A program made the translations under genes and the position numbers. This document shows positions 13,711 to 36,463 of a DNA stretch of 64,000 nt, piece by piece; the stretch's first letter is position 1; every line of letters starts with the position of its first letter. The DNA lies in the IMG/VR virus record IMGVR_UViG_3300036772_000367, positions 32,001-96,000 of that record. One strand, 5' to 3'. This DNA is from a virus. Below the pieces are notes generated by a model, which had not been told where the DNA came from, searched no databases, and saw only the letters and a program-made list of their open reading frames with translations.

Positions 13711-15877
13711 AGTCGGTGCGGTACTCGCTGGAGTATTGAGCGAACCGCCCTCGCTTGCTCGTGATCGTGCGCTGGCCATCCTGAGTGGAGAGGCACACAC
13801 GGCAGCCACTATCCCAGCCGGTTGGGAAGGCGCGCAGGGACCGTTCCGTAGTGACTACAACGAGCCGCATGTCTACGCTCGTGACATTCATTCCGGCGCC
13901 GGTAACTGTGTCTGCGGTGCTGGATTGCAAGAGCGAGTTCATCTCCAAGCAGCTCCGGGTGTAGAGATACCTGACAGAATGCGCACCACAGCATTCCCTA
14001 CGAGGGAGTGCGATAACTGCGGCGGTAGGATGTCACCTCGGTGGCCACGTACCAGACTCGATGATGGACGAATGGTGTGCCCCATGTGCGCTCAGAACGG
14101 GCCGCGTACCGCTGTGATCATGCCTAAGGAGTGGCTGAATTGGGCACGACAGCCGCGACTCGCGGGCCTCTCTCCTCACGATCGTGAATGGCATCACGGG
14201 TGGGATCTGGGATATGACCACGGTCGTGCCAGCGAGCCAGATCTCAGTGAGAGGGATCGAGCGTTTCACCGCTCGGCGCACAAAGAGCAGTTCTCCCAGG
14301 GATACTCTCATGGACTGCATTCCGGTCTGGATCAGACGACATCTTCGTCCACCACATCCGTGGTCGCCGTGCGGGATGACGGACAACTGCGGGTGCTGGC
14401 TCATGACTCTGGTTCGGTGGAGGTCATCTACCACTGCTTCGCAGGAGAGACGCGCTATCTCACCAAGGAGGGCACGAAGACCTTCGCTGAGACTGCGGGC
14501 ACCGTTCAAGAAGTGTTGACCTCTGCGGGTATTGCCAATGACCGTGGTCGGTGGGCGGAAGCCATCATCCATAGCTTCGGTCCGCAGCCAGTCATGACAG
14601 TGCGACTACGTCGCAACAAGGTTGTTAAAACCATTCGCGCCACACATAACCACGAATGGAACATTTTGGGTCGTAATAAGGCCCATCGTGTGGTGACCAC
14701 TCAGGATCTGAAGCCTGGTATGCGGATGGCCCACCTGCGAGCGCGGGGATACTTCTATGAGCCTGAGCATGAGGCTATTCGCATGGGCTTCGTCTTCGGT
14801 GATGGCGCTATTCTGCAACGTCCCCAACAGACATATGGTGTGGCAGTTCTCTGGGGGCCGAAGCGAGATCTGGCCAAATACTTTGATGAAGTATGTACGA
14901 CCGCCCCCCGGGAACGCACCACGATCAATGATGTACCGGGACTGGCATACACCTCCGGCATGGTGGGCTACACCAAAACACTGCCCCCGTTGACGGCACC
15001 ACTGGAGTACCTGCACGGCTGGTTGATGGGATACTTCGCCGCTGACGGCTCGGTCACTAAGACCAACATCAGCATGACGTCTTCAGTGCTGGAGAACCTT
15101 CAGCACGTGCGGGATGTAGCTATCCTATTGGGTATCGGTACTTATTCCATTACCTCGAAGTGGCGCACTGGGTTTGGTGTGACCTCGCAGATCCACACAC
15201 TCGGTTTTTCGGGTAAGGACATGGGTACGTCATTCTTCTTGCGGCATGACCATCAGGATGCCTACGACCTGCGTGACGAACGAGGCACCAATGACCGTGA
15301 GCGTTTCGGGTGGACAGTCGATGCCATTGAGGACACTGGTGAGGTCACCCCCGTCTACTGCGCTCGCGTACCGGAGACCGGCACCTTCGTGCTGGAAGAC
15401 AACATCTGGACCCGAAACTGTCCCTTCTGTGGTTCTGGTCAGGTGATCGCGCGTTCGGATGGCACTGTCATGTGCGAGTTCTGCAACTCTTCCTTCACCG
15501 TGCAGGTGCAGCCGGAGTTCTCGGCGTTCCCCCAGACCGTCGATGGTCAGCCGGTACAGATTCCTGGTCTGCCACCCGACTCCAACCAGGACGCGGGTGG
15601 TCTGCCTCCTGATGAGGGTGCACCAGGCGACCCCACGGCCGAGGACAACGTGCCGAACGATGCTGAGGAGAACGGCCCGCCCGAGGACGGCGACAACACC
15701 GAGGACGAGCCCATCGACTCCGGCGGCAATCCCTTGTTTAACAAGCACTCCTACCGCACCGCTTCGGGTCATGCCCTGTCCGAACTGGAGTATGTTCGTC
15801 ATCTTGCCTTGAAGATCACTCCCGACCGGAAGAATGTGCTCGCACGTATCCGGTTGGAGAGAGCAGCAGGTGACTGA
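13688..15877 (+). CDS. modular Zn-ribbon head protein containing an intein
   Basis: Several CxxC pairs; spliced extein junction reads IYH-CPFCGSGQV. Confidence 0.8.
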   Translation: MKIPGPREVGAVLAGVLSEPPSLARDRALAILSGEAHTAATIPAGWEGAQGPFRSDYNEPHVYARDIHSGAGNCVCGAGLQERVHLQAAPGVEIPDRMRTTAFPTRECDNCGGRMSPRWPRTRLDDGRMVCPMCAQNGPRTAVIMPKEWLNWARQPRLAGLSPHDREWHHGWDLGYDHGRASEPDLSERDRAFHRSAHKEQFSQGYSHGLHSGLDQTTSSSTTSVVAVRDDGQLRVLAHDSGSVEVIYHCFAGETRYLTKEGTKTFAETAGTVQEVLTSAGIANDRGRWAEAIIHSFGPQPVMTVRLRRNKVVKTIRATHNHEWNILGRNKAHRVVTTQDLKPGMRMAHLRARGYFYEPEHEAIRMGFVFGDGAILQRPQQTYGVAVLWGPKRDLAKYFDEVCTTAPRERTTINDVPGLAYTSGMVGYTKTLPPLTAPLEYLHGWLMGYFAADGSVTKTNISMTSSVLENLQHVRDVAILLGIGTYSITSKWRTGFGVTSQIHTLGFSGKDMGTSFFLRHDHQDAYDLRDERGTNDRERFGWTVDAIEDTGEVTPVYCARVPETGTFVLEDNIWTRNCPFCGSGQVIARSDGTVMCEFCNSSFTVQVQPEFSAFPQTVDGQPVQIPGLPPDSNQDAGGLPPDEGAPGDPTAEDNVPNDAEENGPPEDGDNTEDEPIDSGGNPLFNKHSYRTASGHALSELEYVRHLALKITPDRKNVLARIRLERAAGD
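14435..15418 (+). mobile_element. intein with LAGLIDADG homing endonuclease (328 aa)
   Basis: Starts CFAGETRYLT; block B ATHNHEW; MGFVFGDG and LMGYFAADG; ends VYC...FVLEDNIWTRN followed by Cys. Confidence 0.9.
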
Positions 15878-16164: not shown

Positions 16165-19100
16165 GTGACCGACCCAGGATTTCAGGTCAATGACCGACGT
16201 CGCACCACGAGGACGTCGGGCCTTGTCGTGGGCGGCTCCGTGGACGACGCCAAGGAATATGCCCGTCGCATGGGTCGGATGCCGCGCGAGGGCGTCACCT
16301 ACACCGGCATGGGTGATACCAACCCCTACTCACGCCAGTTCTCCCGCAACCGCTCCGAGGAGCAGGTTGTCGAGGAGATGCGCCTGAACCGGCGGGTCGC
16401 CTCACGTCGTACCGCGACGGCTGGTGGGACCACTGGGATTCCTGGTGGCGGGATGGCAGGGAATAACGTCAGCTTCGCTACGGGTCGACCACGTGACCCG
16501 ATGTTTTACTGGCGGCAATCGAACATTCCTTATGACGTCACCAAAGACGACGAGCTCAAGAAGATTCGTGAGTTTTGCAATACGCCAGAAGCTCCGATCT
16601 GGATGGGCGACTATTCATTCAAGCCCATCAGTGAGGTGCAGTCGGGTGATGAGGTAATTGGTTGGCAGTACAACACTGGTCCGAGTGGTGGTCAGCGTAA
16701 GAAGCTTGTGCGTACCAAGGTGCTCGCTGTGAAGCGTCGCGTCGCACCCCAGGTCGTGCGTATCACGATGGAGTCAGGCAAGGTCATTCGTTGTACCCCC
16801 GATCATCAGTGGGCGAATTACTCGTACTCACCCACTCAGAGGGAGGTACTCGATCGTCGTATCATGAAGGCGACGGGACAACCGCGCAATAAGCCGATTG
16901 CGTGGAAACAACCTGAGTACAGGGCTGCACAAGTGGGCGGTTATCTCACGTCTTTCATTGAACCCACGCCCGAGTTGACGGATGACAAGCAACGCATGGC
17001 TGCCATGTGGCTAGCGGGATTGTATGACGGCGAAGGCTGCGGCAATGAGCTAGGACAAAGCGCGACCCACAATCCAGCAGTATGTCAGCGTATCAAGGAT
17101 TCATTGGAAACACTGGGTCTGCCGTGGACTCAACAACCGAATGCTATCTACATTCGAGAAGCTGGACAAGGATATCGTTGGGGTGCACACCAGGATATGG
17201 TGAACTTCCTCAACTGGACTGAGCCGACCCGCAAGACCACCAAGCAGAATGATGCTGCGATCCTGGTGCGCCCTAGTGGTGGCAAGGACCGTGTCGTGTC
17301 CATCGAGTCCGAGGGCCCTGGTGAAGTCGTCTCCATGCAGACGGAGACGGGCAATTACGTGGCATGGGGCTATGCCTCAAAGAACTGTAGACTGTTATAC
17401 CTGACTCACCCGGTGATCGCGGCGTGTACCGACATCTTCACCAAGTTTCCATTGCAAGGCATGGAGCTGGAATGCAAGGACGACCAGCTCAAGGATTTCT
17501 ACGAGACATTGTTTTTCGACCAACTCGACTACCCCAACTACCTGAAGGACCTGGGCCGCGAGTACTGGTTGGTCGGTGAGGCATGGCCACTCGGGTCGTT
17601 CAACGAGATCCTGGGTGTCTGGGAGGACGAGGAGCTTCTCAATCCCGATGACGTTCAGGTGGAACGGTCACCGTTCTTGCGCGACCCGCGCTTCCTGATC
17701 AAGCTGCCGGAGACGCTGCGGCGTGTGCTGCAACAGCGCTCGCCTGCGTGGGAATACGACAAGCTGATGAGGGCGTACCCCGAGCTGGCTGCCTATGCCG
17801 GGGACGATGCTCTGATGCCAGTGAGCAACATCCTGCTGAAGCAGTTGCGTTTCAAGGGCGACACGTTCCACAAGCGCGGCATTCCTATCCTCATGCGCGG
17901 CTTTCGGGCCATCGTGCAGGAAGAGATGCTGAACACCGCGCTGGATGCCATCGCCGACCGCTTGTATACCCCGCTGATCCTGGCCAAGTTGGGTGCATCC
18001 GCTACAGACCTGGGTACCGACATGCCCTGGGTGCCCACCCAGCTCGACCTGGAGAACTTCGAAGAGGCTGTCGATGCCGCCCTGGCCGGAGACTTCCGGG
18101 TCATCACCCATCACTTCGCCACCGACATGGCGCCCGTTTTCGGTCGAGAGAACATGCCTGACCTCTCTGCCGACTTCGATCGCGTGCTTGATCGCATCCT
18201 CATGGTATATGGCATTTCTCGCACGATGCTCAACGGCGCAGAACAAGGCGAAACCTATGCGGCCGACGCTCTGAATCGGGATATGGTCAGCCAGACTCTG
18301 GCTGACTACCAGGCTCTGATCAAGGACTTCTTCCGTGATCGCGCCCTGGTAGTAGCCGAAGCACAGGAACATTTTGACTATGACGTACGCGGTGGCAAGC
18401 GCTACGTGAAGATGGAAGAAGTCATTGTTCCGGACGAGGAAACCGGCGAAGAGAAAATCATCGAACAGCCAGCCCTGTTGGTGCCCGAGCTGACGTTCAA
18501 GACCATGACTCTGGCCGATCAGCAAGAGGAACGCCAGTTCATGGAGGCATTGAACCAAGCAGGCGTGCCGGTGCCCTACACGCGGCGGCTCACGGGAACC
18601 GGTTTGGACTTCGACGACATCATTGAGCAGCGGCAGTCCGAACAGGTCGCGTTGGCCGTGGCCGAGCAGGAGACGCGCCGGGAGACCTTCAAGGCCCTGC
18701 GTGATGCTGGGCTGCCTATCCCCGCCGACCTGGCGCAGGACTTCCAGCCGAAGTCCATCCCAGCTGGACAGCCAGCGATGCCCGAGGCGCTGCCTGGCCA
18801 GGATGCGGCCATCCCCACGTTGGGTGCCCTACCTCCCGATCTGCCGGCCCTGGCGCCCAGCATGGAGGATCAACAGCAGACCGACGAGGAAGACGCCAGT
18901 GGGCCACCTGGGGCGGCGAATCCACTAGGCCAGGTCATCATGATGCCGAATGCCAACATGCCCCAGCCGGGAGACCAACGGCCGCCGGAGTCCGACGAAC
19001 AGCGTGGCCGGATGCCTAAGCCCGCGAAGCGCAAGGATGAGCTGGATCCCTACGATCAGTTCCGCGCGCGGCATTTCGGTCAGGTGAAGCAGGCAGCGCG

Positions 19101-19251
19101 AGAGTATTTCACAGCGCCTGACAATTCCGAAGAAGTCTCGCCCTCGCAGTACTATCCTTCGGGGAGGTTCGGCGATCCGCGTCATATCGGAATGCGTGCC
19201 TATGTGGATGTGCCCGAGGAATATCGTGTGCCAGACGAAGACGCATCGTGA
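16165..19251 (+). CDS. portal protein containing an intein
   Basis: Position and length; motifs GREYWLVGEA, RGIPILMRGF, DRLYTPLILAKLG resemble Bxz1-type portals (recall). Confidence 0.8.
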   Translation: MTDPGFQVNDRRRTTRTSGLVVGGSVDDAKEYARRMGRMPREGVTYTGMGDTNPYSRQFSRNRSEEQVVEEMRLNRRVASRRTATAGGTTGIPGGGMAGNNVSFATGRPRDPMFYWRQSNIPYDVTKDDELKKIREFCNTPEAPIWMGDYSFKPISEVQSGDEVIGWQYNTGPSGGQRKKLVRTKVLAVKRRVAPQVVRITMESGKVIRCTPDHQWANYSYSPTQREVLDRRIMKATGQPRNKPIAWKQPEYRAAQVGGYLTSFIEPTPELTDDKQRMAAMWLAGLYDGEGCGNELGQSATHNPAVCQRIKDSLETLGLPWTQQPNAIYIREAGQGYRWGAHQDMVNFLNWTEPTRKTTKQNDAAILVRPSGGKDRVVSIESEGPGEVVSMQTETGNYVAWGYASKNCRLLYLTHPVIAACTDIFTKFPLQGMELECKDDQLKDFYETLFFDQLDYPNYLKDLGREYWLVGEAWPLGSFNEILGVWEDEELLNPDDVQVERSPFLRDPRFLIKLPETLRRVLQQRSPAWEYDKLMRAYPELAAYAGDDALMPVSNILLKQLRFKGDTFHKRGIPILMRGFRAIVQEEMLNTALDAIADRLYTPLILAKLGASATDLGTDMPWVPTQLDLENFEEAVDAALAGDFRVITHHFATDMAPVFGRENMPDLSADFDRVLDRILMVYGISRTMLNGAEQGETYAADALNRDMVSQTLADYQALIKDFFRDRALVVAEAQEHFDYDVRGGKRYVKMEEVIVPDEETGEEKIIEQPALLVPELTFKTMTLADQQEERQFMEALNQAGVPVPYTRRLTGTGLDFDDIIEQRQSEQVALAVAEQETRRETFKALRDAGLPIPADLAQDFQPKSIPAGQPAMPEALPGQDAAIPTLGALPPDLPALAPSMEDQQQTDEEDASGPPGAANPLGQVIMMPNANMPQPGDQRPPESDEQRGRMPKPAKRKDELDPYDQFRARHFGQVKQAAREYFTAPDNSEEVSPSQYYPSGRFGDPRHIGMRAYVDVPEEYRVPDEDAS
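16576..17385 (+). mobile_element. intein (270 aa) with one clear LAGLIDADG motif
   Basis: Starts CNTPEAPIWMGD...ISEVQSGDEV; block B CTPDHQW; WLAGLYDGEG; ends YVAWGYASKN followed by Cys. Confidence 0.9.
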
Positions 19252-20070: not shown

Positions 20071-21180
20071 ATGATGAAGTTTGATGGACCAGTCAACTAC
20101 AATAATCAGAGTCTAGTGCAGGCTTTGGCTGAACTATTGTCGGTAGATCCGTCCACGCCCATAGAGGGCCGCTTCTGGTACGACACGACGAACCACTTGT
20201 ACAAGTGGTTCAACGGTTCGACGAATATCAACCCGCTGGCTCGTACGAGTCACTCGGGGACGCAGACGTCGGCGACGATCTCGGATCTGGCTGCCGTGGT
20301 GCAAGCGTACCGGCTATCTCAGTTCGCCGCGCCGAACGCCAGCGTGCCGATGGGTGCGCAACAGTTCTCCGGGCTGGCCACTGCCAACGCATCCGGGCAG
20401 GCAGTGGAGTACGCCCAGTTCCAGACGGCGCTCGCTGCTGTCCAGTCAGGGATGGACTTCAAGCAGCACGTCAGCATCATCGCGTTGGCGAACGTAACGA
20501 CATCGAGCCCCGGCGCCACGATCAACGGTCGGACGATGGTGGCCGGCGATCGTGTACTGCTGGCAGCGCAGACGACGACGTCTCAGAACGGCCTGTGGAC
20601 GTGGAGCGGTGCCGCCAGTGCGCTCACACGGCCCGCTGACGCCCCGACAGGTGCGACGGCTGCCGTGGTGGCCGGCACGATCGTGGAGGGCTACAACGCC
20701 ACGGTCAGGACTCTGTACATGCAGACGTCTCTGGGAACCGGTACGAACGGCGCGATCGTGGTGGACACGGATGCGCAGACGTGGACGCAGCCGTTCACCG
20801 GCACCACATATACGGCGGGCAACGGTCTGCAATTGATCGGATCAGTGTTCTCGGCACTGTTGCAGTCCGGCTCGCTGCTGTTGTCATCGGGATCCGGACT
20901 GGCGGTGGACAGTTCGAAGGTCCTTCAAAAGGTAACCGGAGTTGTGCCGACAGCCACGTCAGGAATCTTCACGATCTCGGGTAGCACGGTGACGATCAAT
21001 CACGGTCTGAACAACCAGGATGCTGATTTGTCATTGCGGTTCGGCAGTTCGCCGGGCGCAGGAAACACGACCGGTTCCAAATTGTATGTCGATCACGCAC
21101 CGGTCGACGCGAACAATTTGACGTTCACCTTGTCCGCTGCTCCGGCTGCGAACCAGTATCGCGTGATGGTCAGCGGCTGA
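20071..21180 (+). CDS. head/tail fibre-like structural protein
   Basis: T/S/G/A-rich; GDRVLLAAQTTTSQNGLW and TINHGLN motifs. Confidence 0.7.
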   Translation: MMKFDGPVNYNNQSLVQALAELLSVDPSTPIEGRFWYDTTNHLYKWFNGSTNINPLARTSHSGTQTSATISDLAAVVQAYRLSQFAAPNASVPMGAQQFSGLATANASGQAVEYAQFQTALAAVQSGMDFKQHVSIIALANVTTSSPGATINGRTMVAGDRVLLAAQTTTSQNGLWTWSGAASALTRPADAPTGATAAVVAGTIVEGYNATVRTLYMQTSLGTGTNGAIVVDTDAQTWTQPFTGTTYTAGNGLQLIGSVFSALLQSGSLLLSSGSGLAVDSSKVLQKVTGVVPTATSGIFTISGSTVTINHGLNNQDADLSLRFGSSPGAGNTTGSKLYVDHAPVDANNLTFTLSAAPAANQYRVMVSG

Positions 21181-23387
21181 TGGGTGGCCCTTTGTGGCGG
21201 CAACCTGTGCGGTTGGACGCTGATCCCACCGCCTTGTCCTCGATCGCGACGAAGAACTATACGGATGGCCTGGGTGCCAGATGGGTGCCGGTCGCCGGTC
21301 GAGCGACAGTGGCGAATGAGAACACCAATTTCGCCAATGCAGGTTTGCAGTGGGCTACAGCCGCCCGGTACGGCCGCACGGTGCATCGGGTGATGGTGGG
21401 TGGCGCGAAGCAGATCCGACTGGAGTACGCGAACTGGGGCTGCCAGAACGGTGACTCGACCGCCGCTGTGGGCGGAACGTTGTCGTTGAGCGCGCGACCA
21501 TTTGAGGTGGCAAACCCCAATTCGGTGCAGTTTCGGGCGTCGATCGAGTATCCGGCGGGTGTATGGCGACAGACGGCTGGCAGCACGGCGTGGTCTTCGG
21601 CGACCGCCTATGCGATCGGGGACCAGGTCACCTCCAATGGCTCGACGTGGGTGTCGATCCAGGCCGGCACGAATCAGACCCCGGCCAGTGGTTCGGTTTT
21701 CTGGCAACAGTCACTGCGATACCTGGTGCACTGGGATGGCGAGGACACGACTCGCGCGGTGATATGTGCGGGTGGGACGATGGTGCAGTCGGTGCCGATA
21801 GCCGTTCCCACATTGCGATCCGGCACCTATCTTGCGGTGAACTCGATGGTGCTGACGGGATCAGCAACGAACAAGTTCACGGTTGGTGACATCTCCCGGT
21901 CGAAGGACTTCGCAGTCGACTACGCCACAACACCGCCGACCGCTGGTTCCGCGACAGACCCGGTTGATTCGGGGGTGACGACACAGACCTCGGCAACAGC
22001 CGGCACGCCAATCCCGATGCCGTTGATGGTGTCGGGGATCGCGTCGTCCAACACGGCGGTCGCGGTGATTGGTGACTCGATCGTGTACGGCTTGCAAGAC
22101 ACCGACACGGCGTGGGGTTTCCAGCGCGGTTATGCGGCGGCGGCGATGGAGGACACTCAGACATCCTGGCTGCGGGCTGCACAGTCTGGTTCGGAGGCAA
22201 GCCAGTATTTACCAGCGAATTCACCACTGCGGCTGTCGGTGATCAGTCGGTGTACGGCGGCATTCGTGAATCTCGGGGTCAACGACATCACTGACCAAGC
22301 CGGTGTGACGGCTACGGTGCAGGCGAATCTGGTGGCCTTGTGGACGGCGCTGGATCAGCTCGGCTTGCAAGTATGGCAGTCCACGATCATGCCTTCTACC
22401 ACGTCGACTGATAGTTGGGCCACCAAAGCGAACCAGACAGTGCAGGGCGCATTCGACACGAGCCGACAGGCGATTAACTCGTGGCTGCGTACCGGGGCGA
22501 CCTGGACGATCCTGGGGCAGTCCATTTCGATGGGTAACCCATTGCATCCACTGACCGGTGTGGTGGATCTGTCCTTGTGGACGGAAGACCCTACCGATTC
22601 GTCGCGGTGGCTATCGAATGGCACCGCGAGCTACTGGACGTTGGACGGTACGCATCCGTCCCCGGCGGCGTATGCATCGCTGGCCAGCCAGTTGATGCTC
22701 TTCGTGCGAAAGATGGCGTCCCTAGGCAGCCCCTACCCGTTTGCTGGGGCCCAGGTGGATGCGGTGCCAGCGCTGTTCTTCAACGGCCTGGTGTCTCTAG
22801 GTGGTGCGCAAGACGGATTCGTCTACGGTGACCTGCTGTCGTCGATGCCCCGCAAGGACGCCATATCGATGCTGGACACGGCGAAGTCGGGGAACTCGAA
22901 CGTGCTGACGACGCAGGCAGCCTCCACCACGAGGACGTACTACACCTGGTTGGGGACGCCGGGGATTCCACAAAAGGTGTCGACCATCAAGATTTGTCTG
23001 GGTTCGACGACATCGGCGTCAGCAACCAATGCCACGGCAGTCACGGTGGGTCTCTATGTGGGTCCATCGAATGTATCTCTGACCCAGGTTGCGACGGGGA
23101 CGGTCAGCACTCCGACGACAACCGGCGAAAAAGATGTGGCGTTGTCGAACTCGGTCACCATCAAGAATGGCCAGTACGCAGTGGTGATGGTGGCGGTCAC
23201 CCTCGGTGTGACGGCAGGTCAGGTGCTGTGCGCGAATGTCGCCGGATCCACTTTTGCTGGTGTCGCTACTCCAGCCGGACAGACCAGCTCCGGCTATGCG
23301 TTGCCGTCCGGTGCACTGCCGACTGGCACAATCAGTCTGGGTGGCTATCAACCCTTGCAGCAGAAGTTCTGGGCGGCACTCGCATAG
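21180..23387 (+). CDS. SGNH/GDSL hydrolase with carbohydrate-binding module, probably virion-associated
   Basis: IGDSI, SGS, LGVND and DGTHP blocks; CBM5/12-like AWSSATAYAIGDQVTSNGSTW. Confidence 0.8.
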   Translation: MGGPLWRQPVRLDADPTALSSIATKNYTDGLGARWVPVAGRATVANENTNFANAGLQWATAARYGRTVHRVMVGGAKQIRLEYANWGCQNGDSTAAVGGTLSLSARPFEVANPNSVQFRASIEYPAGVWRQTAGSTAWSSATAYAIGDQVTSNGSTWVSIQAGTNQTPASGSVFWQQSLRYLVHWDGEDTTRAVICAGGTMVQSVPIAVPTLRSGTYLAVNSMVLTGSATNKFTVGDISRSKDFAVDYATTPPTAGSATDPVDSGVTTQTSATAGTPIPMPLMVSGIASSNTAVAVIGDSIVYGLQDTDTAWGFQRGYAAAAMEDTQTSWLRAAQSGSEASQYLPANSPLRLSVISRCTAAFVNLGVNDITDQAGVTATVQANLVALWTALDQLGLQVWQSTIMPSTTSTDSWATKANQTVQGAFDTSRQAINSWLRTGATWTILGQSISMGNPLHPLTGVVDLSLWTEDPTDSSRWLSNGTASYWTLDGTHPSPAAYASLASQLMLFVRKMASLGSPYPFAGAQVDAVPALFFNGLVSLGGAQDGFVYGDLLSSMPRKDAISMLDTAKSGNSNVLTTQAASTTRTYYTWLGTPGIPQKVSTIKICLGSTTSASATNATAVTVGLYVGPSNVSLTQVATGTVSTPTTTGEKDVALSNSVTIKNGQYAVVMVAVTLGVTAGQVLCANVAGSTFAGVATPAGQTSSGYALPSGALPTGTISLGGYQPLQQKFWAALA

Positions 23388-24186: not shown

Positions 24187-27100
24187 GTGGTTGTGTGGCA
24201 TCCGTCCGATCGGCTCTACGCCACCGCTGAGGTCGCTGAGGGCGATCGCAACCCCAGCGGGGTGAAGCCGTTGACCTCGGATCTGCCCGAGCAACAGTTC
24301 GAGGGTGATGGCGGGCCGCCACCGTGCCCCTACTGTGGCCACCCCGAGTTCAAGGAGTTGCCGTCCAACGGCCGGGCCGATCGCGCCCAATGTGCCCAGT
24401 GTGGTGGCATGGTCTACTCGGTCAACGGCAGTCAGTGGCAACCTGAGCTGATCGGTGATCCTTCCAATCACCCCTCCAGCGCAGCGGACCCCGCGTCCGG
24501 TGGTGTGGGTGGTGCGGCGAACTCCGAGGTCCTGATGAACCAGGGACCTGTGCGGACGCACGACGATTCTCAGCTCCGCAACTCGTTGAGTTCACTGGTG
24601 AAGACGGCCGACGATGATCAGTGTCCGCGTTGCTCCGGCGACATGACCGACACAGCGCCGGATCGTTGCTTGGACTGTGGCTATACCCAACCGACTCGTG
24701 TCTCGGACAATCCTCCGCAACATTCTGGACAACGTGTCGCCCTACTGCATACCGCATTGTCCTGGGATGAGATTGGGGATCGGCATCCCCACGTCTACGG
24801 CGACTCCGAGATCCATGGGGATGCCGCTGACGGGGCAGATGGCCCAGGCATCGGATCGGCCGCCAATTACCTAGCCCACGAGACACCAGAGGATCCGGAT
24901 GGGGAAGGGCACTCCGAACACGAGCTGGAGTTCCGCGCGAGGACGGTGCACCCGCGCCACATCGACTACAGCCCCAGCGGTTCGGATGACTACCGGGTGA
25001 AGCGCGCCCGTGAGGGCTATCAGACCCAGCCGGAGATGATGCCGCCGCTGGTGTTGGTCAAGCGCCACAACGTATATCAGGTGGCCGATGGTCACCACCG
25101 GGCCGAGGCCGCTGCTTCGCTGAACCAGCCGGTGCGGGCCTACATCGCGGACTCTCCCTATCCCGATACACCTTTCCGGGACGGCGAGATCGGTCCCTTC
25201 CACCACGCCGAGCCGATCGAGGCCGAACACCACACGGCAGCGAAACCACGACCAAGCAAGAGCTTTCCCAATGGAAAGCGTCACGGCATCGAGATTACTG
25301 ACGGTGCCTACCCAGACGAGTCAGGCATTGTTCAGTGTGACAACTGCGGTAAATACCACTCTGCTACGTACGACCATGAAGGCCAGCACCACGAGGGGCC
25401 CATCCATGCGGTGACGTGCCCGCAGGATGGCATGACCGACTACTACACCAACGAGCGCCTGGAGCCACGCGAGGCGGCACTGAACGATGAGGTTCCCTGG
25501 TGTGCGCACCTTTACCACGGCAACTGCACCTATCCCGGTGACAAGCTGCCCAACGGCACCATCCTGGGCATCCCGCAGGATCGTGGTCCGTGCCCATGGA
25601 AGCACTCGGCGTTCCAGCAGGCCGCGTGTCCCATCTCAGCGCCAGGACCGATGGCTGTCATGACGGTGACAGCCGAGTCGCATACTGCTGATGGCGACTA
25701 TCGAATGCAGCACCAAGCGCCCGATGCCGACTACGGGGCCCCGCTGCATGATGTCGAAGAGATGATGCCCGACTTCTATACGCACCCGCATTACTACAAC
25801 ACTGGTCAGGAACATTTCTGGGATTCCGCTAACAAGATCATAAAGGCGCGCGGGAACCCAGAGAAGAAGGTTCAGATCTATCGGTCGCTGCCGGCCGACT
25901 ACGCGCACGAAGGTTTCCACACGGGCGATTGGGTCACCACATCGAAGGACTATGCCCGTGAGCATGGTAAGGCCACTGAGGACAAAGGATCAGAGCACGA
26001 CTGGCCGATCATCTCCACCAGGGTGCCAGCGAAGCACCTGCACACCGAGGGAGACGTCCACGAGTGGGCCTACAACGGCCCGGAGAAGCCCTTCGGCCAC
26101 ACGGTGAGCTTCCCGGGCGGTCGTGAGCAACAGATCCGGCAGCGTGCCGATGGCACCGTGCAACGGGTCAAGCATCGTCCTGTCGACCCGTTGAATGCCC
26201 AAGGGTACAGCTTCAGTCATCACATGCTGAACGAGAACTCGGATAACCCGGCGCATCAAGTGACGGCGTATGGCCCCGACGAGAACTATGCGGGGCACCA
26301 CCGAGTCGATGCGCAGGGCACCGTCGAGTCCCACGTCGAGCCCGAACATGAGCATATGGCAGATCCGCTGCGTGAGCGGATGGCCAATGAAGTCACCAAG
26401 CGCATGGCGTCACTGCATGTTGGTATCGAGGAAATGCAGCGGATTGCCATTTTTGACGGGGAAGAACAGTGGCATCTCACTGCGGTGACCGCTGGTGCGC
26501 ACGACAGCGATACAGAAATGAAGGGCTTCGGTCTCGATCCCCTGCATGAGGACGATGACTACGCCACTCTGCATCACAAATTCTCGCAGCACTATCGCAT
26601 TCTCGATCATGTTTATGCCAGCGGCAACGAAGCGCATCCAGACGACGTGGATGCTGCTGATGCCATTGATCGGCATCATCGTGACCATGATGTCCCGCCC
26701 ATCACGGATTCCACCTACGGTGATGCGCTACCGCATCAGATGGCGTCGGTGGCTGCCCAAATGATGGTCAACAAGCGTGCAGATCACAGAAGACTCGATC
26801 ATCCTACTGTGACCATGGAGCGAATTCCAGCGAAAGATCATGCGTCTGGGGATTTCAAACAAGGCAGTGTACTGGGTGACTATCAACACGACATCTCACA
26901 CATTCGGTTGGATCCTTATGTTTTGGCCAATGCTGAGATCAACCGCGAAGAGCACGCACCTCAGTCTGATGCACGTGGCTGGCACGTACCTGCTGGAAAT
27001 GCCAATCCGTGGCAGACCACTATCTCTCACGAGGGTGGGCACCACAGGGAAATGAGCCTGACGTCACAGCAACGTGCTTCTATGTTTCGCGACATTTCCC

Positions 27101-30100
27101 ATACTATTCCTGGAGTGACTCCATACACGGAGAAGCGGGCTACTGAACACGGATTGAATAAATGGCATAACGCGAACTATGCCCACCTCATCAATCACGT
27201 CGGGACGTATGCCGCAAAGAATTACCGCGAACTTGCAGCTGAGTTGTATTCTGAACATAGACATGCCGACAATCCATCGCTTGCTGCTCAGACAGCGGGC
27301 CGTCATCTGGAGGGGCGATTTGACGACGATAACAATGAACAGCGCGGATTTGCAGGAGAGTTTGGCGAAGCTAGTTCATATGGAGCCCAGCGCCGAACGG
27401 GATCAGGCCATCGCGAAGGTCATCTCACAGTTGGAGGAGTGCAGGCAGAAGGGTCTCTAACTTTCTGCACTGATACTGAGGAAATGCAGCGGGTCGCCGC
27501 GCTCGACAAAGAGGGACAGTGGCATCTGACGGCGTCCTGGGCAGACGTCAAGGACAAGGCGAAGCTGATCCGCGCGGGTGGTGGTGTCCGTATCGCCGTG
27601 GCATCGATGGATGGCATTGGCGGAGAAGTCCAGGGTGAGCACCATGTCTACGAGACACTGCTGACCTTCGTGCCCGGCTCGTACAAAGTGGGTTCCTGGC
27701 AGTGCGGCTGCAAGTGGGCTGCCTATGCTTGGGGCCGCTCGCCAGCGTATCGACGGTTCGAAGGCCGGATGTGCTCCCATGCCCTGGCCATGCAGTACGA
27801 GGCCCAGGCCCGAGGGATGTTCGGCCGCACTGTCCAGGAGGACCGGGAGCGTCCACACTGGCTCAAGCCGCACTCGCCGGTCGTAGTGCAGTACGAGCGA
27901 CCGAGTGAGAAGCACCCGCAGGGCATCGACCTGACGCGTCGTGCGGTGCCGCCGGGCAACATGCGCACGACGTTCGGGTCCAAGGAGGCAGCGATGGAAC
28001 CAGCACAACTGATCGCGCTGGCCGTGCTGACGATGTGCGACCACGATCCGGTGCGTGCCATCCCCTCCCTGGGGCTGTACGGCTTCGACCACCGCACTGC
28101 GCAACTGTTGATCAAGCAGGCGACCGAACACGAGGACGCGGAAAGTCTGAGCGTGCCGCCGTTGCGCTTGGAGCAGCTGCACCCCGAACCGATGCGGTCT
28201 ACTGCGTCGAAGCGATGCCCTGAGTGCAGTGCCTCGGTTTCCAGCAGTGCGCTGACGTGCCCCGAGTGCGGTGCGAACCTTGCCGATGTTCCCGAACTCC
28301 ATGAGGCTTCATGGCAGGACGAGGAGCAGCGCTGTCCGCACTGTGGTGGCTACCTGGGCCCGACCGCGTTCAAGGCGGGGCGCTGCCCGCACTGCGGCCA
28401 TGCACTGTCGCACCGGGAAGGTGCCTACGAGCCGGGCCTGCACAACACGCAGGATGCCCGGATGAACACCGAGGCCCCTGACTGGGGCACAGACCACCTC
28501 GTGCCCTGCGACCAGTGTCGTGGACAAGGCTGCGGTCACTGCGGCGGCACGGGCAACGTGGTGCAGATGAACGGGGTCACTGGCTCGCCTGTGCCTGACC
28601 AGTCCGAGGGTGCCGGCGACGTCATGCGTCAGGACGGCTTGGCGTGGGGTGATCCCATCTCGATGGGTGCCGTGTTGGCAGCACATGAAGATGACCCAAC
28701 TTACTTGCGCTTTGGCTCGTGGCCGAAGGACGAGCGATCGCGAAACAATATCACGGGGTTCCCTGAAGAAGGCGTGAGCGTCTACGATCTCGACCACCGT
28801 GGTGAGCCGAAGGATCCGGACGCCAACTTTGGTCGCTTGCATGAGCACCACGAGCATTGTGATCCGGACTGCGATTTGGACTCGTGGAACGAGGACTACG
28901 GTAACGACACCCTGGAGGAAATGCGGGGACGAGTGCATCGTGCCGAGAGGACTCGCTACAACGGCAACGAGAACCACAGCGATACCGGACATCTGGTCAA
29001 GGGCGAGATGGCGGGCATTGGCCATGACGGCGAGCCGCTGCTGAAGAATGTGCGCCGAGTCGGCGACTGGATCGATCATCGCCATCTGTTTTTCCCGCAG
29101 GCGGAGAGGCACCGACTGGCTCGTGATCCCTATGACGAGGACTACGAAGAGCCCAAGCTGAACAAACGTAGCGCAAAGAAGCAGGAGAGCCACGCGCCTT
29201 CGGTCGCGGGCGTGGCGCTCAAGGCGGCCGACACGGGTCGAGTACTGATGCTGCAACGTGGCCTAGAGGACAAGAAGGATCCTGCTGCTGGTACGTGGGA
29301 ATTCCCCGGCGGCCACATTGAGCCGGGCGACAAGACGTCTCTGCATGGTGCGATGCGGGAGTGGGAAGAGGAAGTCGGTCAACCGTTCCCGGACGGTGGT
29401 GTGGTCCACCACGTCTGGACGTCGCCGAATGGTGTCTACCAGGGTCACGTCGTGGTGATCCCCGCCGAGCGTGACCTGACGATGCACGACGGCCGCGTGA
29501 TGACCAATCCTGATGATCCACATGGTGATCATGCCGAGCAGGCTGCCTGGTGGCAGGTCGAGCACGCACGCAAGAACCCCGCACTGCGGCCCGAGGTGAA
29601 GCAGAATACGCCATGGAAGCAGCTTGCCAACGCAGGAATGCAGAAGGAAGCTGACTACGCCGCGAATGATGCACTCAGTGGCGGCGGTCCCGAGGTGCAC
29701 ACGCCTACCGACGCACCGCAGCACTCTAACTCCACAAACCCGGCCAGCACCGGCTACGCGACGTCCTGGGATCCGAACGGGTGGAACGGCGAGGAACCCT
29801 TCGGCGGTCGTGATGACGTGCCCATGGCGGGCTACTCGGCATCCTTGGCACCCATCATCGAACCCCGATACTCCTACCAGCCGCCGCAGGCCGTAGCGAG
29901 TGTCCTGGGCCAATGGGGGCAGGGACAGACACCCGTGGTGTTCGAGCGTGCCGCCAGGACGCTGGCCACTCTGCACGACGAGCCAGAACCTGCGCTGCCC
30001 TCCACCGATGGTGGTGACGAGCGCATGAAGCCGATCAACCACCTGCATCACGGCATCCCACACAATGACCAGGGCACAATGCCGTACGGCTATGACGATC

Positions 30101-30555
30101 TGAGCGAATTCCGCGAGGATCACCCCGAAGTGCCGACGCGCTATACCAACAACCCCTTCGACCCCTACTACGGCGACTCCAACGACACCGGCCAGGATTC
30201 CATTGGTGACACTGAGGATTCCCTCTCGCCCAACTCCGTCACGGCCGCTGGACACGCGACCACTCATGATGCGTCGGTGGCCGACATTGTCGCCCAGTTC
30301 CAGGCCACTGCCGCCGCAGGCCAGCTGATGACCTCAGGTGGTGCGCCCACTAACGACGGCATGAACATCGCCGCCGCCGCACAAGCACACCTGCGTAAGT
30401 CAGCGTTGAAGGACTTCAACTTCCATGAGCAGCAGGAGTTGATCAACGAGGGGGCGCGTGACCGAACACGGGCACGCAACATGGGAGACTTGCGCATCGA
30501 GGGAACGCACTACGAAATGCTTCCTGACGATGAAGACGCCAACTTGTTCGTCTGA
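24187..30555 (+). CDS. 2122-aa polyvalent protein: Zn ribbons, ParB/Srx, two ART-like modules, zincin peptidase, SWIM finger, Nudix
   Basis: PPLVLV...VADGHHR (about 25.0-25.15 kb); IYR...GDWVTTS...HEW (about 25.7-26.1 kb); HEGGHH (27028); CGC...CSH (about 27.7 kb); YLRFG...GVSVY...DGEPLL (about 28.7-29.1 kb); GGHIEPGD...REWEEEVG (about 29.3-29.4 kb). Confidence 0.85.
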   Translation: MVVWHPSDRLYATAEVAEGDRNPSGVKPLTSDLPEQQFEGDGGPPPCPYCGHPEFKELPSNGRADRAQCAQCGGMVYSVNGSQWQPELIGDPSNHPSSAADPASGGVGGAANSEVLMNQGPVRTHDDSQLRNSLSSLVKTADDDQCPRCSGDMTDTAPDRCLDCGYTQPTRVSDNPPQHSGQRVALLHTALSWDEIGDRHPHVYGDSEIHGDAADGADGPGIGSAANYLAHETPEDPDGEGHSEHELEFRARTVHPRHIDYSPSGSDDYRVKRAREGYQTQPEMMPPLVLVKRHNVYQVADGHHRAEAAASLNQPVRAYIADSPYPDTPFRDGEIGPFHHAEPIEAEHHTAAKPRPSKSFPNGKRHGIEITDGAYPDESGIVQCDNCGKYHSATYDHEGQHHEGPIHAVTCPQDGMTDYYTNERLEPREAALNDEVPWCAHLYHGNCTYPGDKLPNGTILGIPQDRGPCPWKHSAFQQAACPISAPGPMAVMTVTAESHTADGDYRMQHQAPDADYGAPLHDVEEMMPDFYTHPHYYNTGQEHFWDSANKIIKARGNPEKKVQIYRSLPADYAHEGFHTGDWVTTSKDYAREHGKATEDKGSEHDWPIISTRVPAKHLHTEGDVHEWAYNGPEKPFGHTVSFPGGREQQIRQRADGTVQRVKHRPVDPLNAQGYSFSHHMLNENSDNPAHQVTAYGPDENYAGHHRVDAQGTVESHVEPEHEHMADPLRERMANEVTKRMASLHVGIEEMQRIAIFDGEEQWHLTAVTAGAHDSDTEMKGFGLDPLHEDDDYATLHHKFSQHYRILDHVYASGNEAHPDDVDAADAIDRHHRDHDVPPITDSTYGDALPHQMASVAAQMMVNKRADHRRLDHPTVTMERIPAKDHASGDFKQGSVLGDYQHDISHIRLDPYVLANAEINREEHAPQSDARGWHVPAGNANPWQTTISHEGGHHREMSLTSQQRASMFRDISHTIPGVTPYTEKRATEHGLNKWHNANYAHLINHVGTYAAKNYRELAAELYSEHRHADNPSLAAQTAGRHLEGRFDDDNNEQRGFAGEFGEASSYGAQRRTGSGHREGHLTVGGVQAEGSLTFCTDTEEMQRVAALDKEGQWHLTASWADVKDKAKLIRAGGGVRIAVASMDGIGGEVQGEHHVYETLLTFVPGSYKVGSWQCGCKWAAYAWGRSPAYRRFEGRMCSHALAMQYEAQARGMFGRTVQEDRERPHWLKPHSPVVVQYERPSEKHPQGIDLTRRAVPPGNMRTTFGSKEAAMEPAQLIALAVLTMCDHDPVRAIPSLGLYGFDHRTAQLLIKQATEHEDAESLSVPPLRLEQLHPEPMRSTASKRCPECSASVSSSALTCPECGANLADVPELHEASWQDEEQRCPHCGGYLGPTAFKAGRCPHCGHALSHREGAYEPGLHNTQDARMNTEAPDWGTDHLVPCDQCRGQGCGHCGGTGNVVQMNGVTGSPVPDQSEGAGDVMRQDGLAWGDPISMGAVLAAHEDDPTYLRFGSWPKDERSRNNITGFPEEGVSVYDLDHRGEPKDPDANFGRLHEHHEHCDPDCDLDSWNEDYGNDTLEEMRGRVHRAERTRYNGNENHSDTGHLVKGEMAGIGHDGEPLLKNVRRVGDWIDHRHLFFPQAERHRLARDPYDEDYEEPKLNKRSAKKQESHAPSVAGVALKAADTGRVLMLQRGLEDKKDPAAGTWEFPGGHIEPGDKTSLHGAMREWEEEVGQPFPDGGVVHHVWTSPNGVYQGHVVVIPAERDLTMHDGRVMTNPDDPHGDHAEQAAWWQVEHARKNPALRPEVKQNTPWKQLANAGMQKEADYAANDALSGGGPEVHTPTDAPQHSNSTNPASTGYATSWDPNGWNGEEPFGGRDDVPMAGYSASLAPIIEPRYSYQPPQAVASVLGQWGQGQTPVVFERAARTLATLHDEPEPALPSTDGGDERMKPINHLHHGIPHNDQGTMPYGYDDLSEFREDHPEVPTRYTNNPFDPYYGDSNDTGQDSIGDTEDSLSPNSVTAAGHATTHDASVADIVAQFQATAAAGQLMTSGGAPTNDGMNIAAAAQAHLRKSALKDFNFHEQQELINEGARDRTRARNMGDLRIEGTHYEMLPDDEDANLFV
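26428..27534 (+). repeat. 57-bp imperfect direct repeats (26428-26484, 27478-27534) bracketing the peptidase module
   Basis: EEMQRIAIFDGEEQWHLTA vs EEMQRVAALDKEGQWHLTA; shared GAGGAAATGCAGCGG and ACAGTGGCATCT. Confidence 0.85.
27320..27460 (+). CDS. nested out-of-frame 46-aa ORF (peptidase partner candidate)
   Basis: GGAGGGG RBS at 27309; LQESLAKLVHMEPSAERDQAIAKV resembles the N-terminus of gene 13688. Confidence 0.5.
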   Translation: MTTITMNSADLQESLAKLVHMEPSAERDQAIAKVISQLEECRQKGL

Positions 30556-33970: not shown

Positions 33971-36463
33971 GTGCTGCGGAAGACCGCTGTCTTTGATGTC
34001 CTGGATGTCATCCAGGCGCATGATATTGCGCGACAGACTCCTCTAGGGCCGATCAGTCGCATCGGTCATCGACATGTCTTTGATTTCGAGCCTCGGTATG
34101 GCTACCTCTATGTTCGTAGCCGGATGATTTCCTCGCGGTGCAATGATAACTTCGATGAGTTCCCCGCCGAGGAAATCAAGAAAGCCTACGCCACGTTCGT
34201 CGGCAAGCCAGTCTTCGTCAACCACAATAACGATGATCACCGTCGGATGCGTGGTCTGATCATCGATGCCGTGCTGCACGAAGATCGTAACCCAGATGGC
34301 TCCCCAGACACCTGGGTCGAGGGCCTGATGGAGATCGATGGCCTGCGGTATCCCAAGTTGGCCAAAGCACTCATCAAACGGCACATCGAGCGCACCTCCA
34401 TGGGTGTGGACGTTGAGTACTCCATCTGTTCGAAGTGTGGCAACAAGGCCACCACACCACTGGAGTACTGCCGCCACGTGCCGGGCATGAAGGGCAAGCG
34501 CATCTACTCCTTCACCAAGTCTGGTGCCAGGGTCAGCGAACTGATCCGGGAGAAGTGCTACGGGCTGGGGTTCTTCGAGAACTCCCTGTTGGTCGAGCCA
34601 CCAGCAGATCCAACTGCCCTCTTTTTGGACAAGCCCATCCTCGGTCCTGGACTGGAGCACCTGGCCATGACGGCATCGGACCGTTACCTTCAGCGTATTG
34701 CCTCCGTCGCGGCATCCTTTCGTCTGGTAGCTGGGATGCGCTGCGTGGCATGTCGGGGTCTGAACACCGTGGCCGACCTAGAGGGGCACCACGAGTGCTT
34801 CGACTGTTCGGCGGCTTGGAACTCGCGTACCGCTTCTCTGGAAGTGGAAGCGGCTCCGCGTTACGCCGATCCTGCCCAACATCCTTGGTTCCAGCAGCAC
34901 CCGCTGAATCACCAGAACATCGTGGATCATTGGCATCAGGCCACTCCCGACGAGCGTACCCAAGGAATGCATTGGTATTCTGATGCGCATATTATCGGGC
35001 AGGCTCTCGGTGAGCACCATGAAAAATCGCATGGTCTTGTGCACCCGCAGGGTGCATCACATCTTGGTGCGGGCATTCTTGCGACCTACTCGCCTCAGAT
35101 GGGTTGGGCAGGCAATATGCACAATGCCGCCCGAGTGTTGCACGGCAACAAGGGCATCGGTGGACCTAATTCCGGCATGATGGCCAGTACCCATCAACGC
35201 GTCGCAGCCGACCGCATTCTCAACGGTGAGAACTACATGGATGTGCTCAAGGGTCCGAAGATCCAGGACTTCGCGCACCTGATCGAGCATGGTGGGGACG
35301 CTGATCCTGATCATCCTCATGTCGTGGTAGATCGTCATGCACTCTCGGTTGCCGCTGGTCATCGGCTCACTGATGAGCAATACGGTAAGGCTCCTACTTC
35401 GCAGCGGCACTACTACGGCCATGCCGTGCAGCAGTACCATCACGCTGCCCGTGAACTGTCCAACGAGGAGTCCAGCCCCGTCGCTGGGCATCAGGTGCAG
35501 GCCACTACCTGGCTGGTCCGTCAGCGCCTCAATCAGGCCGAAGAAAAGGCTCATGCCCAAACAGGAGCCGACACACGATTGGACCGAGGACGCGATCGTG
35601 CTCGGGGCAATGCGGAAAAGAAGTGGGAGGACTGGCGCACGGAGAACCTGCCTGATCTCCAACACAAGGGACCAGGCACCGGCTATGTCGCGCGACGGCG
35701 CAGTGTGGCCTATGGCGAGACGAAGGCCCCGGCCGACGTAGACACCCTACGCGAGGAAGCTTGTCCGGTTTGCGGTGAGGAGAACGCCTACGACGGCACC
35801 GAGTGCAAGGTCTGCGGTTTTGTCGCGCCACCCAAGGAATTCCAGGATCCTGACCTGGAGATGGCCAAGCGCGTCGACCTGCGCAAGGACGTGTCCGATT
35901 TGAATGGTGCCGACGTCTCCGATCTCAACGAGGATCTCAACGACGTTGACAAGGACGGACTTGACGACGAAACCGGGGAACCGGTCGACGGTACTGGCCC
36001 TGGCGACGTGCAGCCGACGTTGGTGTGCAACAACTGCGGCACCGAGTTCGAGGCAGGCGAGCCCATCACGACCGACACACGTGATCCGCAGGCTGGTGAC
36101 GCGGGACTCGGCCCCGACGAAGGTGACGTCTGCCCGGCCTGTGGCAAGGGCATCTTGGAAGCTCCCAACGATCTGGACGTCTCTCCACAGGACGACCAGA
36201 ATCGCTCCGAGCCCGAGGACCCTGACCCGTCTGCTCAGCAAACACCTCCTTTCTCGCGCGATCGCGGCGAAGAAGATGAGGATGAGAACGAGCAGAATGG
36301 GCAACCAGACAACGACGAGGACCCCGACGCCCAGGAACGCAACTTCGTGCCGACTGACGAGGATGGGGATCCTGATGATGATGGCGACAATGACGAAGAC
36401 GCCATTCCTCCGCGTAAGCGCAAAGGCACGCCTGCTCGCCAGGACCGGAACCCCTTCAAGTGA
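33971..36463 (+). CDS. prohead (capsid maturation) protease fused to an internal cargo domain and an acidic Zn-ribbon tail
   Basis: FVGKPVFVNH...TSMG...FENSLLVEPPAD (HK97/assemblin-type His, Ser, Glu); lies upstream of scaffold and MCP. Confidence 0.85.
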   Translation: MLRKTAVFDVLDVIQAHDIARQTPLGPISRIGHRHVFDFEPRYGYLYVRSRMISSRCNDNFDEFPAEEIKKAYATFVGKPVFVNHNNDDHRRMRGLIIDAVLHEDRNPDGSPDTWVEGLMEIDGLRYPKLAKALIKRHIERTSMGVDVEYSICSKCGNKATTPLEYCRHVPGMKGKRIYSFTKSGARVSELIREKCYGLGFFENSLLVEPPADPTALFLDKPILGPGLEHLAMTASDRYLQRIASVAASFRLVAGMRCVACRGLNTVADLEGHHECFDCSAAWNSRTASLEVEAAPRYADPAQHPWFQQHPLNHQNIVDHWHQATPDERTQGMHWYSDAHIIGQALGEHHEKSHGLVHPQGASHLGAGILATYSPQMGWAGNMHNAARVLHGNKGIGGPNSGMMASTHQRVAADRILNGENYMDVLKGPKIQDFAHLIEHGGDADPDHPHVVVDRHALSVAAGHRLTDEQYGKAPTSQRHYYGHAVQQYHHAARELSNEESSPVAGHQVQATTWLVRQRLNQAEEKAHAQTGADTRLDRGRDRARGNAEKKWEDWRTENLPDLQHKGPGTGYVARRRSVAYGETKAPADVDTLREEACPVCGEENAYDGTECKVCGFVAPPKEFQDPDLEMAKRVDLRKDVSDLNGADVSDLNEDLNDVDKDGLDDETGEPVDGTGPGDVQPTLVCNNCGTEFEAGEPITTDTRDPQAGDAGLGPDEGDVCPACGKGILEAPNDLDVSPQDDQNRSEPEDPDPSAQQTPPFSRDRGEEDEDENEQNGQPDNDEDPDAQERNFVPTDEDGDPDDDGDNDEDAIPPRKRKGTPARQDRNPFK

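Follow-up and report, generated by a model that had tools for sequence, protein, structure and literature searches.

A 2122-codon gene of the virus record IMGVR_UViG_3300036772_000367 likely encloses a second, complete gene that is written in another reading frame. The DNA analyzed here is a 64,000-nt stretch (the window) comprising bases 32001-96000 of this 155,226-bp record, which CheckV rates as complete, and positions without a locus name refer to the window. The giant gene encodes a polyvalent protein, as several unrelated effector-type domains are found within a single 2122-aa open reading frame (ORF), and one of these domains is a predicted zincin metallopeptidase (Table 1). We consider it likely, though short of firm, that the segment holding this domain is a two-gene cassette, in which the zincin is paired with a small partner gene for a helical hairpin of ~45 residues, and that the partner has been retained as a separate gene in the +1 frame of the giant ORF. 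The evidence comes from the zincin family and the gene that follows it at other loci, from the pattern of conservation in the overlap, and from relatives of the giant protein.

The zincin assignment is based upon motif, conservation, and fold. An AlphaFold2 model of the module, built from an alignment of 26 zincin sequences (A5), has a predicted local distance difference test score (pLDDT) of 89.5 and a predicted template modeling score of 0.88. It places the HEGGH motif in a helix spanning residues 175-190 of the module, and the H, E, and H of the motif are invariant in A5. The candidates for the predicted third metal ligand lie in helix 247-260, where E249 is invariant and E253 is nearly invariant. 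Structural comparison with VIA-align yielded a Z score of 8.1 (root-mean-square deviation 6.4, 179 aligned residues) to the catalytic domain of anthrax lethal factor (1yqy_A) and Z scores of 7.0 (PPEP-2) and 6.9 to Pro-Pro endopeptidases (PPEP), and nearly all of the top matches listed have a zincin fold. A Foldseek search of the PDB returned weak matches (best E 0.06), which consistently were lethal factor and PPEP. By its motif, third Glu, and fold, the module is predicted to be a zincin-like metallopeptidase of the gluzincin type. Sequence and profile searches of the PDB returned nothing useful, the best match being myroilysin (E 0.018) over the HExxH helix only. Pfam, PHROG, and PADLOC scans of the zincin returned no match, and tblastn with the module found nothing in cultured phages or in plasmids.

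An exhaustive HMMER search with the module returned 50 representatives of the family, most of which are located at the C-termini of their proteins and end 2-6 residues after a conserved Gly-x-His-Leu-Glu-Gly. The end of these C-terminal zincins corresponds to approximately query position 278, which is nucleotide ~27318 of the window, exactly where the nested ORF begins. The window also encodes a free-standing zincin paralogue, and this one ends a few residues beyond the position matching the nested-ORF start in the giant gene. A short Gly-Pro-Lys-Gly-Tyr-Ile-His-Gly-Trp-Ile motif occurs in the N-terminal parts of several proteins that end in a zincin (P0084, P0091, and P0092) and in the partner-domain protein of locus L014 (3152-4420).

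We compared the DNA of seven loci having a C-terminal zincin (L010-L016), and in all seven the next gene starts at or just across the zincin stop codon. This gene is a partner ORF of 43-52 codons in four loci (L011, L012, L013, and L015), and in the remaining three (L010, L014, and L016) it encodes a longer protein with the same ~43 residues at its N-terminus. The downstream genes of all seven loci match a profile of the nested ORF (E 8e-14 to 1.4e-5), and the relative frame of the free-standing zincin/partner pairs varies among loci. The gene after the partner encodes a conserved protein of ~330 aa, which is fused to the partner in L010 (2842-3933) and separate in L012 (3430-4410); it has no Pfam or PHROG match and may be a head-assembly protein. 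Free-standing partners are scarcely represented among annotated proteins, as just two were found among the small proteins of a 5.8-billion-protein collection. Profile searches returned two matches among proteins of 23-84 aa and one among longer proteins, so the family size is not estimable from annotated proteins, and a search for related loci with alignment A2 identified one viral and two metagenome loci.

Ten proteins contain an internal zincin, and DNA was compared for seven of them. In 6 of these 7 giant genes, namely those of the window, L005 (P0008), L006 (P0029), L007 (P0086), L009 (P0085-like), and L017 (P0093), the end of the zincin is followed at once by a +1-frame ORF of 43-48 codons. 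The nested ORFs open with a start codon, which is TTG in the window and ATG in the others, and then two Thr codons, most have a purine-rich Shine-Dalgarno (SD)-like stretch upstream, and they align without gaps both with each other and with the free-standing genes (alignments A3, A4, and A6). In the seventh gene, that of L008 (P0006; 5405-5501), the junction to the next module falls inside the partner, leaving a remnant of 23 codons, and the giant-frame GC content at third codon positions (GC3) is normal there (0.64). An earlier note on this DNA had pointed to a GGAGGGG element followed by a 46-aa ORF in another frame, had described the main frame at this place as filler, and had made its proposal depend upon conservation of the nested frame. 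Both the element and the ORF are present, and the conservation extends to the six giant genes above and to every C-terminal zincin gene examined, all of which have the partner next to them. The ORF in the window is complete, has a start codon and an SD-like sequence of its own, and lies wholly inside the giant gene in a different frame, which is the arrangement expected of an embedded gene. Its product was modeled with helices at residues 8-19 and 25-43 (pLDDT 75).

Conservation in the overlap follows the nested frame. Among five overlapping loci used for tests of frame identity and recoding, pairwise identity averaged 0.47 when read in the nested frame, 0.33 in the giant frame, and 0.32 in the unused one. 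Nucleotide variability at nested codon positions 1/2/3 was 0.43/0.36/0.47; the least variable site is nested position 2, which is giant-frame position 3, opposite to what selection upon the giant frame alone would produce. When the giant protein was kept and its synonymous codons were redrawn, the identity of the nested frame fell to 0.213 +/- 0.021 with a maximum of 0.286, none of the 2000 replicates reached 0.47, and 89% of them placed a nested-frame stop in at least one of the five sequences. Base composition agrees with this, since giant-frame GC3 is 0.32-0.42 in the overlap at every locus keeping the nested gene, compared with 0.72-0.88 elsewhere in these genes. Within the overlap of the window, giant-frame GC3 is 0.36-0.37, and the nested frame has a coding-like pattern (0.51/0.36/0.74). 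Lastly, when the window was translated in six frames to give 1646 pieces, a leave-one-out profile of 11 partner sequences from other loci hit the nested ORF alone (25.2 bits, E 1e-6), the next-best piece scoring 5.3 bits. Purifying selection on the nested frame is shown by these comparisons across the six loci, and what looks like filler in the giant frame mostly shadows the small gene.

Would the +1 frame be expected to look like this if it encoded nothing at all? The Gly, Glu, Ala, and Asp codons of the giant frame put G at position 1 and can mimic coding GC3 in the next frame, giant-frame GC1 in the overlap is 0.74-0.88, and open alternative frames are common in GC-rich DNA. Still, a mere compositional shadow is hardly credible given the amino-acid homology to free-standing genes, the failure of every recoded replicate to reach the observed identity, and the leave-one-out profile match. 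The direction of the shadow can in fact be reversed: the giant-frame motifs that seem conserved in the linker, an Arg-Glu-Gly triplet among them, may themselves mirror the second helix of the partner, which is conserved. Programmed +1 frameshifting out of the giant frame would instead yield a truncated product, consisting of the zincin plus a helical tail, beside the full-length protein. The +1 shift site of prfB has an SD-like sequence just upstream, as does the nested ORF with its GGAGGGG, and the nested-frame stop is found ~45 codons on at every locus. We nonetheless regard frameshifting as very improbable, because five loci compared share no slippery sequence in the 30 nt upstream, a conserved start codon occupies this position at every locus, and the same ORF stands free with its own start after C-terminal zincin genes, in differing relative frames.

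Several observations do weigh against a working partner gene in this particular virus. Its partner sequence is the most divergent of the family (23-42% identical to the others) and has a TTG start, while the nearest zincin relatives, P0006 and P0007, have lost the nested gene; the partner is thus dispensable in some contexts and could be decaying in this virus. Ribosomes translating the giant frame would also tend to occlude an internal start. Pfam, PHROG, PADLOC, and Atlas contain no family match for the partner, whose role is read from gene order alone, and an ESM Atlas search with one partner sequence was uninformative (best score 0.79). Furthermore, the six overlapping loci are not independent of each other, and the giant frame is not wholly unconstrained: when the nested protein was kept in the recoding, giant-frame identity was 0.259 +/- 0.022 compared with 0.333 observed, a much smaller excess that could reflect weak constraint or residual shared ancestry. 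The divergence, the TTG start, and the losses in the sister zincins would all suit a non-functional fossil that was carried along with the cassette, has stayed open by luck, and is no longer translated, as would the fact that the evidence of constraint spans deep divergence rather than close relatives of this virus. We consider such a fossil unlikely, since the ORF is full length and free of stops with its conserved second helix intact, scores 25 bits against a profile from other loci, and has an SD at ideal spacing, and since the overlap has persisted through deep divergence in the internal-zincin group. A retained gene, presumably translated from the internal TTG, is the reading we prefer. 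Our confidence that the partner functions in this virus is kept at likely and no higher mainly because the partner can be lost.

The fusion of zincin and partner gene appears to be older than its present position. A maximum-likelihood tree built from 37 zincin cores sets the ten internal zincins apart by a branch with 97/91 support, and within it the window zincin groups with P0006 and P0007 (98/94). All six nested partners, moreover, have the same +1 register. The most economical explanation is that a stop codon was lost long ago, probably in a single event, after which the fused cassette moved among giant genes. Given this grouping, capture in frame happened long ago and was not a product of insertion at this site. 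Here the earlier note, which had proposed in-frame capture of a two-gene cassette between the repeats described below, was right about the cassette and its nested partner, but the fusion goes back further and is found in other giant genes as well. In the ancestral and still common layout, a head-module protein, MuF-like in some cases, would end with the zincin, and a translationally coupled small partner gene would follow. The zincin stop codon would then have been lost in one lineage, such that the giant frame continues across the partner gene in a register shifted by one base and the read-through yields a floppy Gly/Ala/Arg/Glu linker joining the zincin to the next domain. The partner gene would stay distinct, retaining an SD and a start codon of its own, and the fused cassette would be passed between giant genes as one piece. 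Here, the cassette lies between a ParB-C-like module and a SWIM region, with a boundary motif on both sides.

This boundary motif is the source of the direct repeats to which the earlier note had drawn attention, describing a lower-GC zincin module between two copies 1050 bp apart. The description holds: in a 64-nt pair (26421-26484 and 27471-27534), 47 of 64 positions match (73%), the start-to-start distance of 1050 nt is 350 codons and in frame, and the segment between the repeats has a GC content of 0.53 and a GC3 of 0.52, compared with 0.62 and 0.72 in the remaining gene, with a sharp rise in GC at copy 2. The 47 matches make this the top 64-mer pair of the whole polyvalent gene, as 20 codon shuffles reached 36-38. 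At the protein level, 14 of 19 residues are common to both copies, each of which ends in WHLTA, and the longest perfect match between them is 15 nt. This 15-nt stretch (26430-26444 and 27480-27494) is GAGGAAATGCAGCGG, which contains an SD-like GAGG followed after 2 nt by a giant-frame ATG. The pairing may have arisen by chance, or it may serve as a weak internal start from which downstream parts of the polyprotein are made; a Met is found at this position in P0093 and P0095 as well. The conserved start of the motif (26428-26445 and 27478-27495) reads Arg-x-Ala in several proteins, including the relatives P0009, P0010, and P0093, a pattern that is absent from many relatives.

A search with residues 640-1260 identified 76 related giant proteins, and the SWIM region was matched in all of them, but the peptidase at this position in none. 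The WHLTA-type motif is single and located at the start of the SWIM region in ~50 related proteins of at least 900 aa, whereas it is double only in the window protein; one other related protein has a second match to a loose five-residue pattern, which is probably chance. The homologues with one motif and no peptidase that the earlier note had asked for do exist, as there are eight relatives (P0006, P0007, P0009, P0011, P0012, P0017, P0018, and P0020) in which the left-flank module (query 492-766) joins the motif and SWIM region without an intervening peptidase. Compared with these relatives, the zincin module is an addition at this site. Deletion between the repeats would be arithmetically in frame and would restore the common architecture. 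We also tried copy 1 as the N-terminus of the zincin module itself, having seen a similar short motif before the P0008 zincin, and rejected this, because other internal zincins lack the motif and copy 1 continues the left flank as it does in the empty-site relatives. Copy 2 outscores copy 1 against the single motif of 49 of 68 relatives, and in P0010 the single motif matches copy 2 at 14/19 residues compared with 10/19 for copy 1; copy 2, whose GC also resembles that of the resident gene, is probably the resident copy, although 19 codons make this only suggestive. The GC contents of the 57-nt copies (0.53 and 0.65) include too few sites to decide which copy is foreign.

How the two copies arose has two candidate answers. 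Direct insertion of the cassette into a resident gene could have duplicated a target of 57-64 nt, in which case the copies were once identical, have since diverged, and would have been able to mediate precise in-frame excision. The repeat-insert-repeat layout with its in-frame spacing, the existence of empty-site relatives, and the foreign GC of the insert are all as such an insertion would leave them. Nevertheless, copies that are 73% identical with no perfect match above 15 nt fit poorly with an arrangement that is found in no relative and hence points to a recent event. In P0093 and P0095, the cassette and its nested gene already lie immediately 5' of the boundary motif and SWIM region, and no flanking repeats surround the cassette in the five other loci examined. 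Target duplication is consequently possible but rather doubtful. We lean towards a join of two parental layouts, in which one illegitimate join was accompanied by one homologous crossover further along. Given the P0093/P0095 layout on one side and the empty-site layout on the other, one such join gives the layout of the window with copies that had already diverged, and the two motif copies would be orthologous sequences that differed from the start. Because P0093 and P0095 have the cassette before the motif, it was probably already being read through when it arrived here.

As for function, the partner most likely binds the zincin, acting either as an immunity-like inhibitor or as a chaperone until packaging or injection, which we infer by analogy with other enzyme-plus-small-ORF pairs. 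For the zincin, Iyer et al. 2017 discuss processing of the polyvalent protein and attack on proteins of the host; either may apply here, and the data do not discriminate between these roles. A broader proposal, which we offer tentatively and as somewhat less probable than its opposite, is that polyvalent virion proteins grow by swallowing effector-plus-antidote cassettes. Under this proposal, the 46-residue protein would be a dedicated inhibitor of the adjacent zincin, made from the same mRNA and silencing the peptidase in the producing cell or capsid; the overlap would lock the pair into one shufflable module, and the whole would amount to overprinting in reverse.

Table 1. Features of the window discussed in the text
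Feature	Position	Strand	Remarks
Polyvalent virion-type protein gene	24187-30555	+	2122 codons; defined by ORF list, translation, and 76 related giant proteins
Domains of the polyvalent gene			Zn ribbons, ParB-like region, zincin, SWIM region, double Zn ribbon, NUDIX
Repeat copy 1	26428-26484 (aa 748-766)	+	Ends WHLTA; GC 0.53; continues left-flank module as in peptidase-free relatives
Zincin metallopeptidase module (predicted)	26485-27318 (aa 767-1044)	+	HEGGH at 27028-27042 (aa 948-952); conserved Glu pair on a later helix
SD-like GGAGGGG	27309-27315	+	4 nt upstream of nested TTG
Giant-frame linker reading through partner gene	27319-27477 (aa 1045-1097)	+	Gly/Ala/Arg/Glu-rich
Nested partner gene (putative)	27320-27460	+	46 codons plus TAA; TTG start; +1 frame of giant ORF; predicted helical hairpin
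Repeat copy 2	27478-27534 (aa 1098-1116)	+	Start of SWIM region; PHROG matches begin here; GC 0.65
Free-standing zincin paralogue	13036-13710	+	224 aa; 31% identity, E 6e-15; groups with P0124 in tree
Gene overlapping 3' end of free-standing zincin	13688-15877	+	First ~40 residues a probable divergent partner domain; then Zn ribbons and a LAGLIDADG intein-like insert

The remainder of the window places the giant gene within a phage head module. The portal protein (gene 16165-19251) has ~40% identity to portals of ~155-kb cluster-C-like Mycobacterium phages, which makes it probable that this virus is a large actinobacteriophage. The polyvalent gene is located downstream of the portal gene and of decoration-protein genes, a position suggesting that its product is packaged in the virion and delivered with the DNA. 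Pfam matches in the polyvalent protein include NUDIX (E 2e-14) and DZR, and the ParB-C-like region matches a PHROG ParB C-terminal domain (E 2e-35). Its closest backbone relative is P0010 (3088 aa, on a 73-kb contig), which is 70-84% identical over many modules. In place of window aa 499-1097, P0010 has the first 38 residues of the ParB-C-like module and an unrelated stretch of ~40 residues, followed by the SWIM region, a further example of module loss or gain at linkers. Two other genes of the window encode a 735-aa protein with GDSL lipase and CBM_5_12 domains (21180-23387, between a decoration-like protein gene and the polyvalent gene) and an 830-aa protein with a prohead-protease-like N-terminus plus DUF7178 (33971-36463).

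The free-standing zincin paralogue of the window is also followed by an overlapping gene, whose 729-aa product probably begins with a partner-family domain. The link is weak and runs through L016: the N-terminus aligns with its L016 counterpart (E 2e-4), which in turn matches the partner profile (E 1.4e-5), whereas BLASTP of the nested peptide against the 729-aa protein was not significant and the leave-one-out profile also misses this N-terminus. The same protein has a LAGLIDADG_3 match (aa 442-490) in an apparent intein with a Cys start and an end of the His/Asn-Cys type. The host of this insert is a Zn-ribbon protein encoded just upstream of the portal gene, and the L016 counterpart has the same LAGLIDADG match.

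The arrangement documents, at the level of sequence, a route by which giant phage effector proteins can gain domains, as loss of a stop codon and read-through of the next small gene require no dedicated linker. It also means that linkers of giant proteins can hide real, conserved genes that gene callers and standard annotation miss; for annotation, the +1 frame deserves inspection wherever a C-terminal-type domain is found inside a giant virion gene. With ~50 zincin representatives, the zincin-partner pair is a directly testable interaction. If the partner is an inhibitor, the pair would bear on how peptidase domains of injected proteins stay inactive until delivery, a question open in the polyvalent-protein literature.

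Among known systems, the closest to the giant protein are the polyvalent proteins of phages and conjugative elements, in which a zincin-like metallopeptidase (MPTase) is the commonest domain (Iyer et al. 2017, PMC5512222). The window protein resembles these in being a giant multi-domain phage protein encoded in a virion module, with an MPTase alongside ParB-like, NUDIX, and Zn-ribbon domains. Its MPTase bears a distant similarity to the peptidase fold of lethal factor, and its relatives exhibit extreme domain shuffling (PMC5512222). It differs in that its MPTase has a conserved out-of-frame partner and its linker is the read-through of that partner; a term search for frameshifting found no mention in Iyer et al. 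2017 (PMC5512222), and no mention of linker-nested genes was found there. MuF polymorphic toxins are head-module proteins with a variable C-terminal enzymatic domain, a metallopeptidase in 20%, followed by a small putative immunity ORF (Jamet et al. 2017, PMC5576092), and L011, L012, L013, and L015 similarly have a C-terminal enzymatic domain followed by a small ORF (<150 aa). A Phage_Mu_F (PF04233) match was weak and present in 2 of 26 zincin family members (best E 2e-4), with a faint match in the upstream gene of L012. The window protein had no such match in a Pfam scan, and it differs further from the MuF toxins in that its pair is internal and its small gene is wholly overlapped. Toxicity and immunity of the zincin-partner pair would be an analogy only.

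Embedded out-of-frame gene pairs are familiar in phages from Rz/Rz1 of lambda and from E within D of phiX174. Like them, the nested partner is small and complete, has a start of its own, and occupies the +1 frame of a larger gene, both frames being open. Overall, the feature is a variant on embedded phage genes, on polyvalent proteins, and on the MuF-type effector plus small ORF, built around a zincin-partner pair that is undescribed. It departs from classical overprinting (for a review, see PMC8227390) in its apparent history, since there the embedded gene is the newcomer, whereas here the small gene would be the older one and the stretch of the large gene the new frame, opened by loss of a stop codon.

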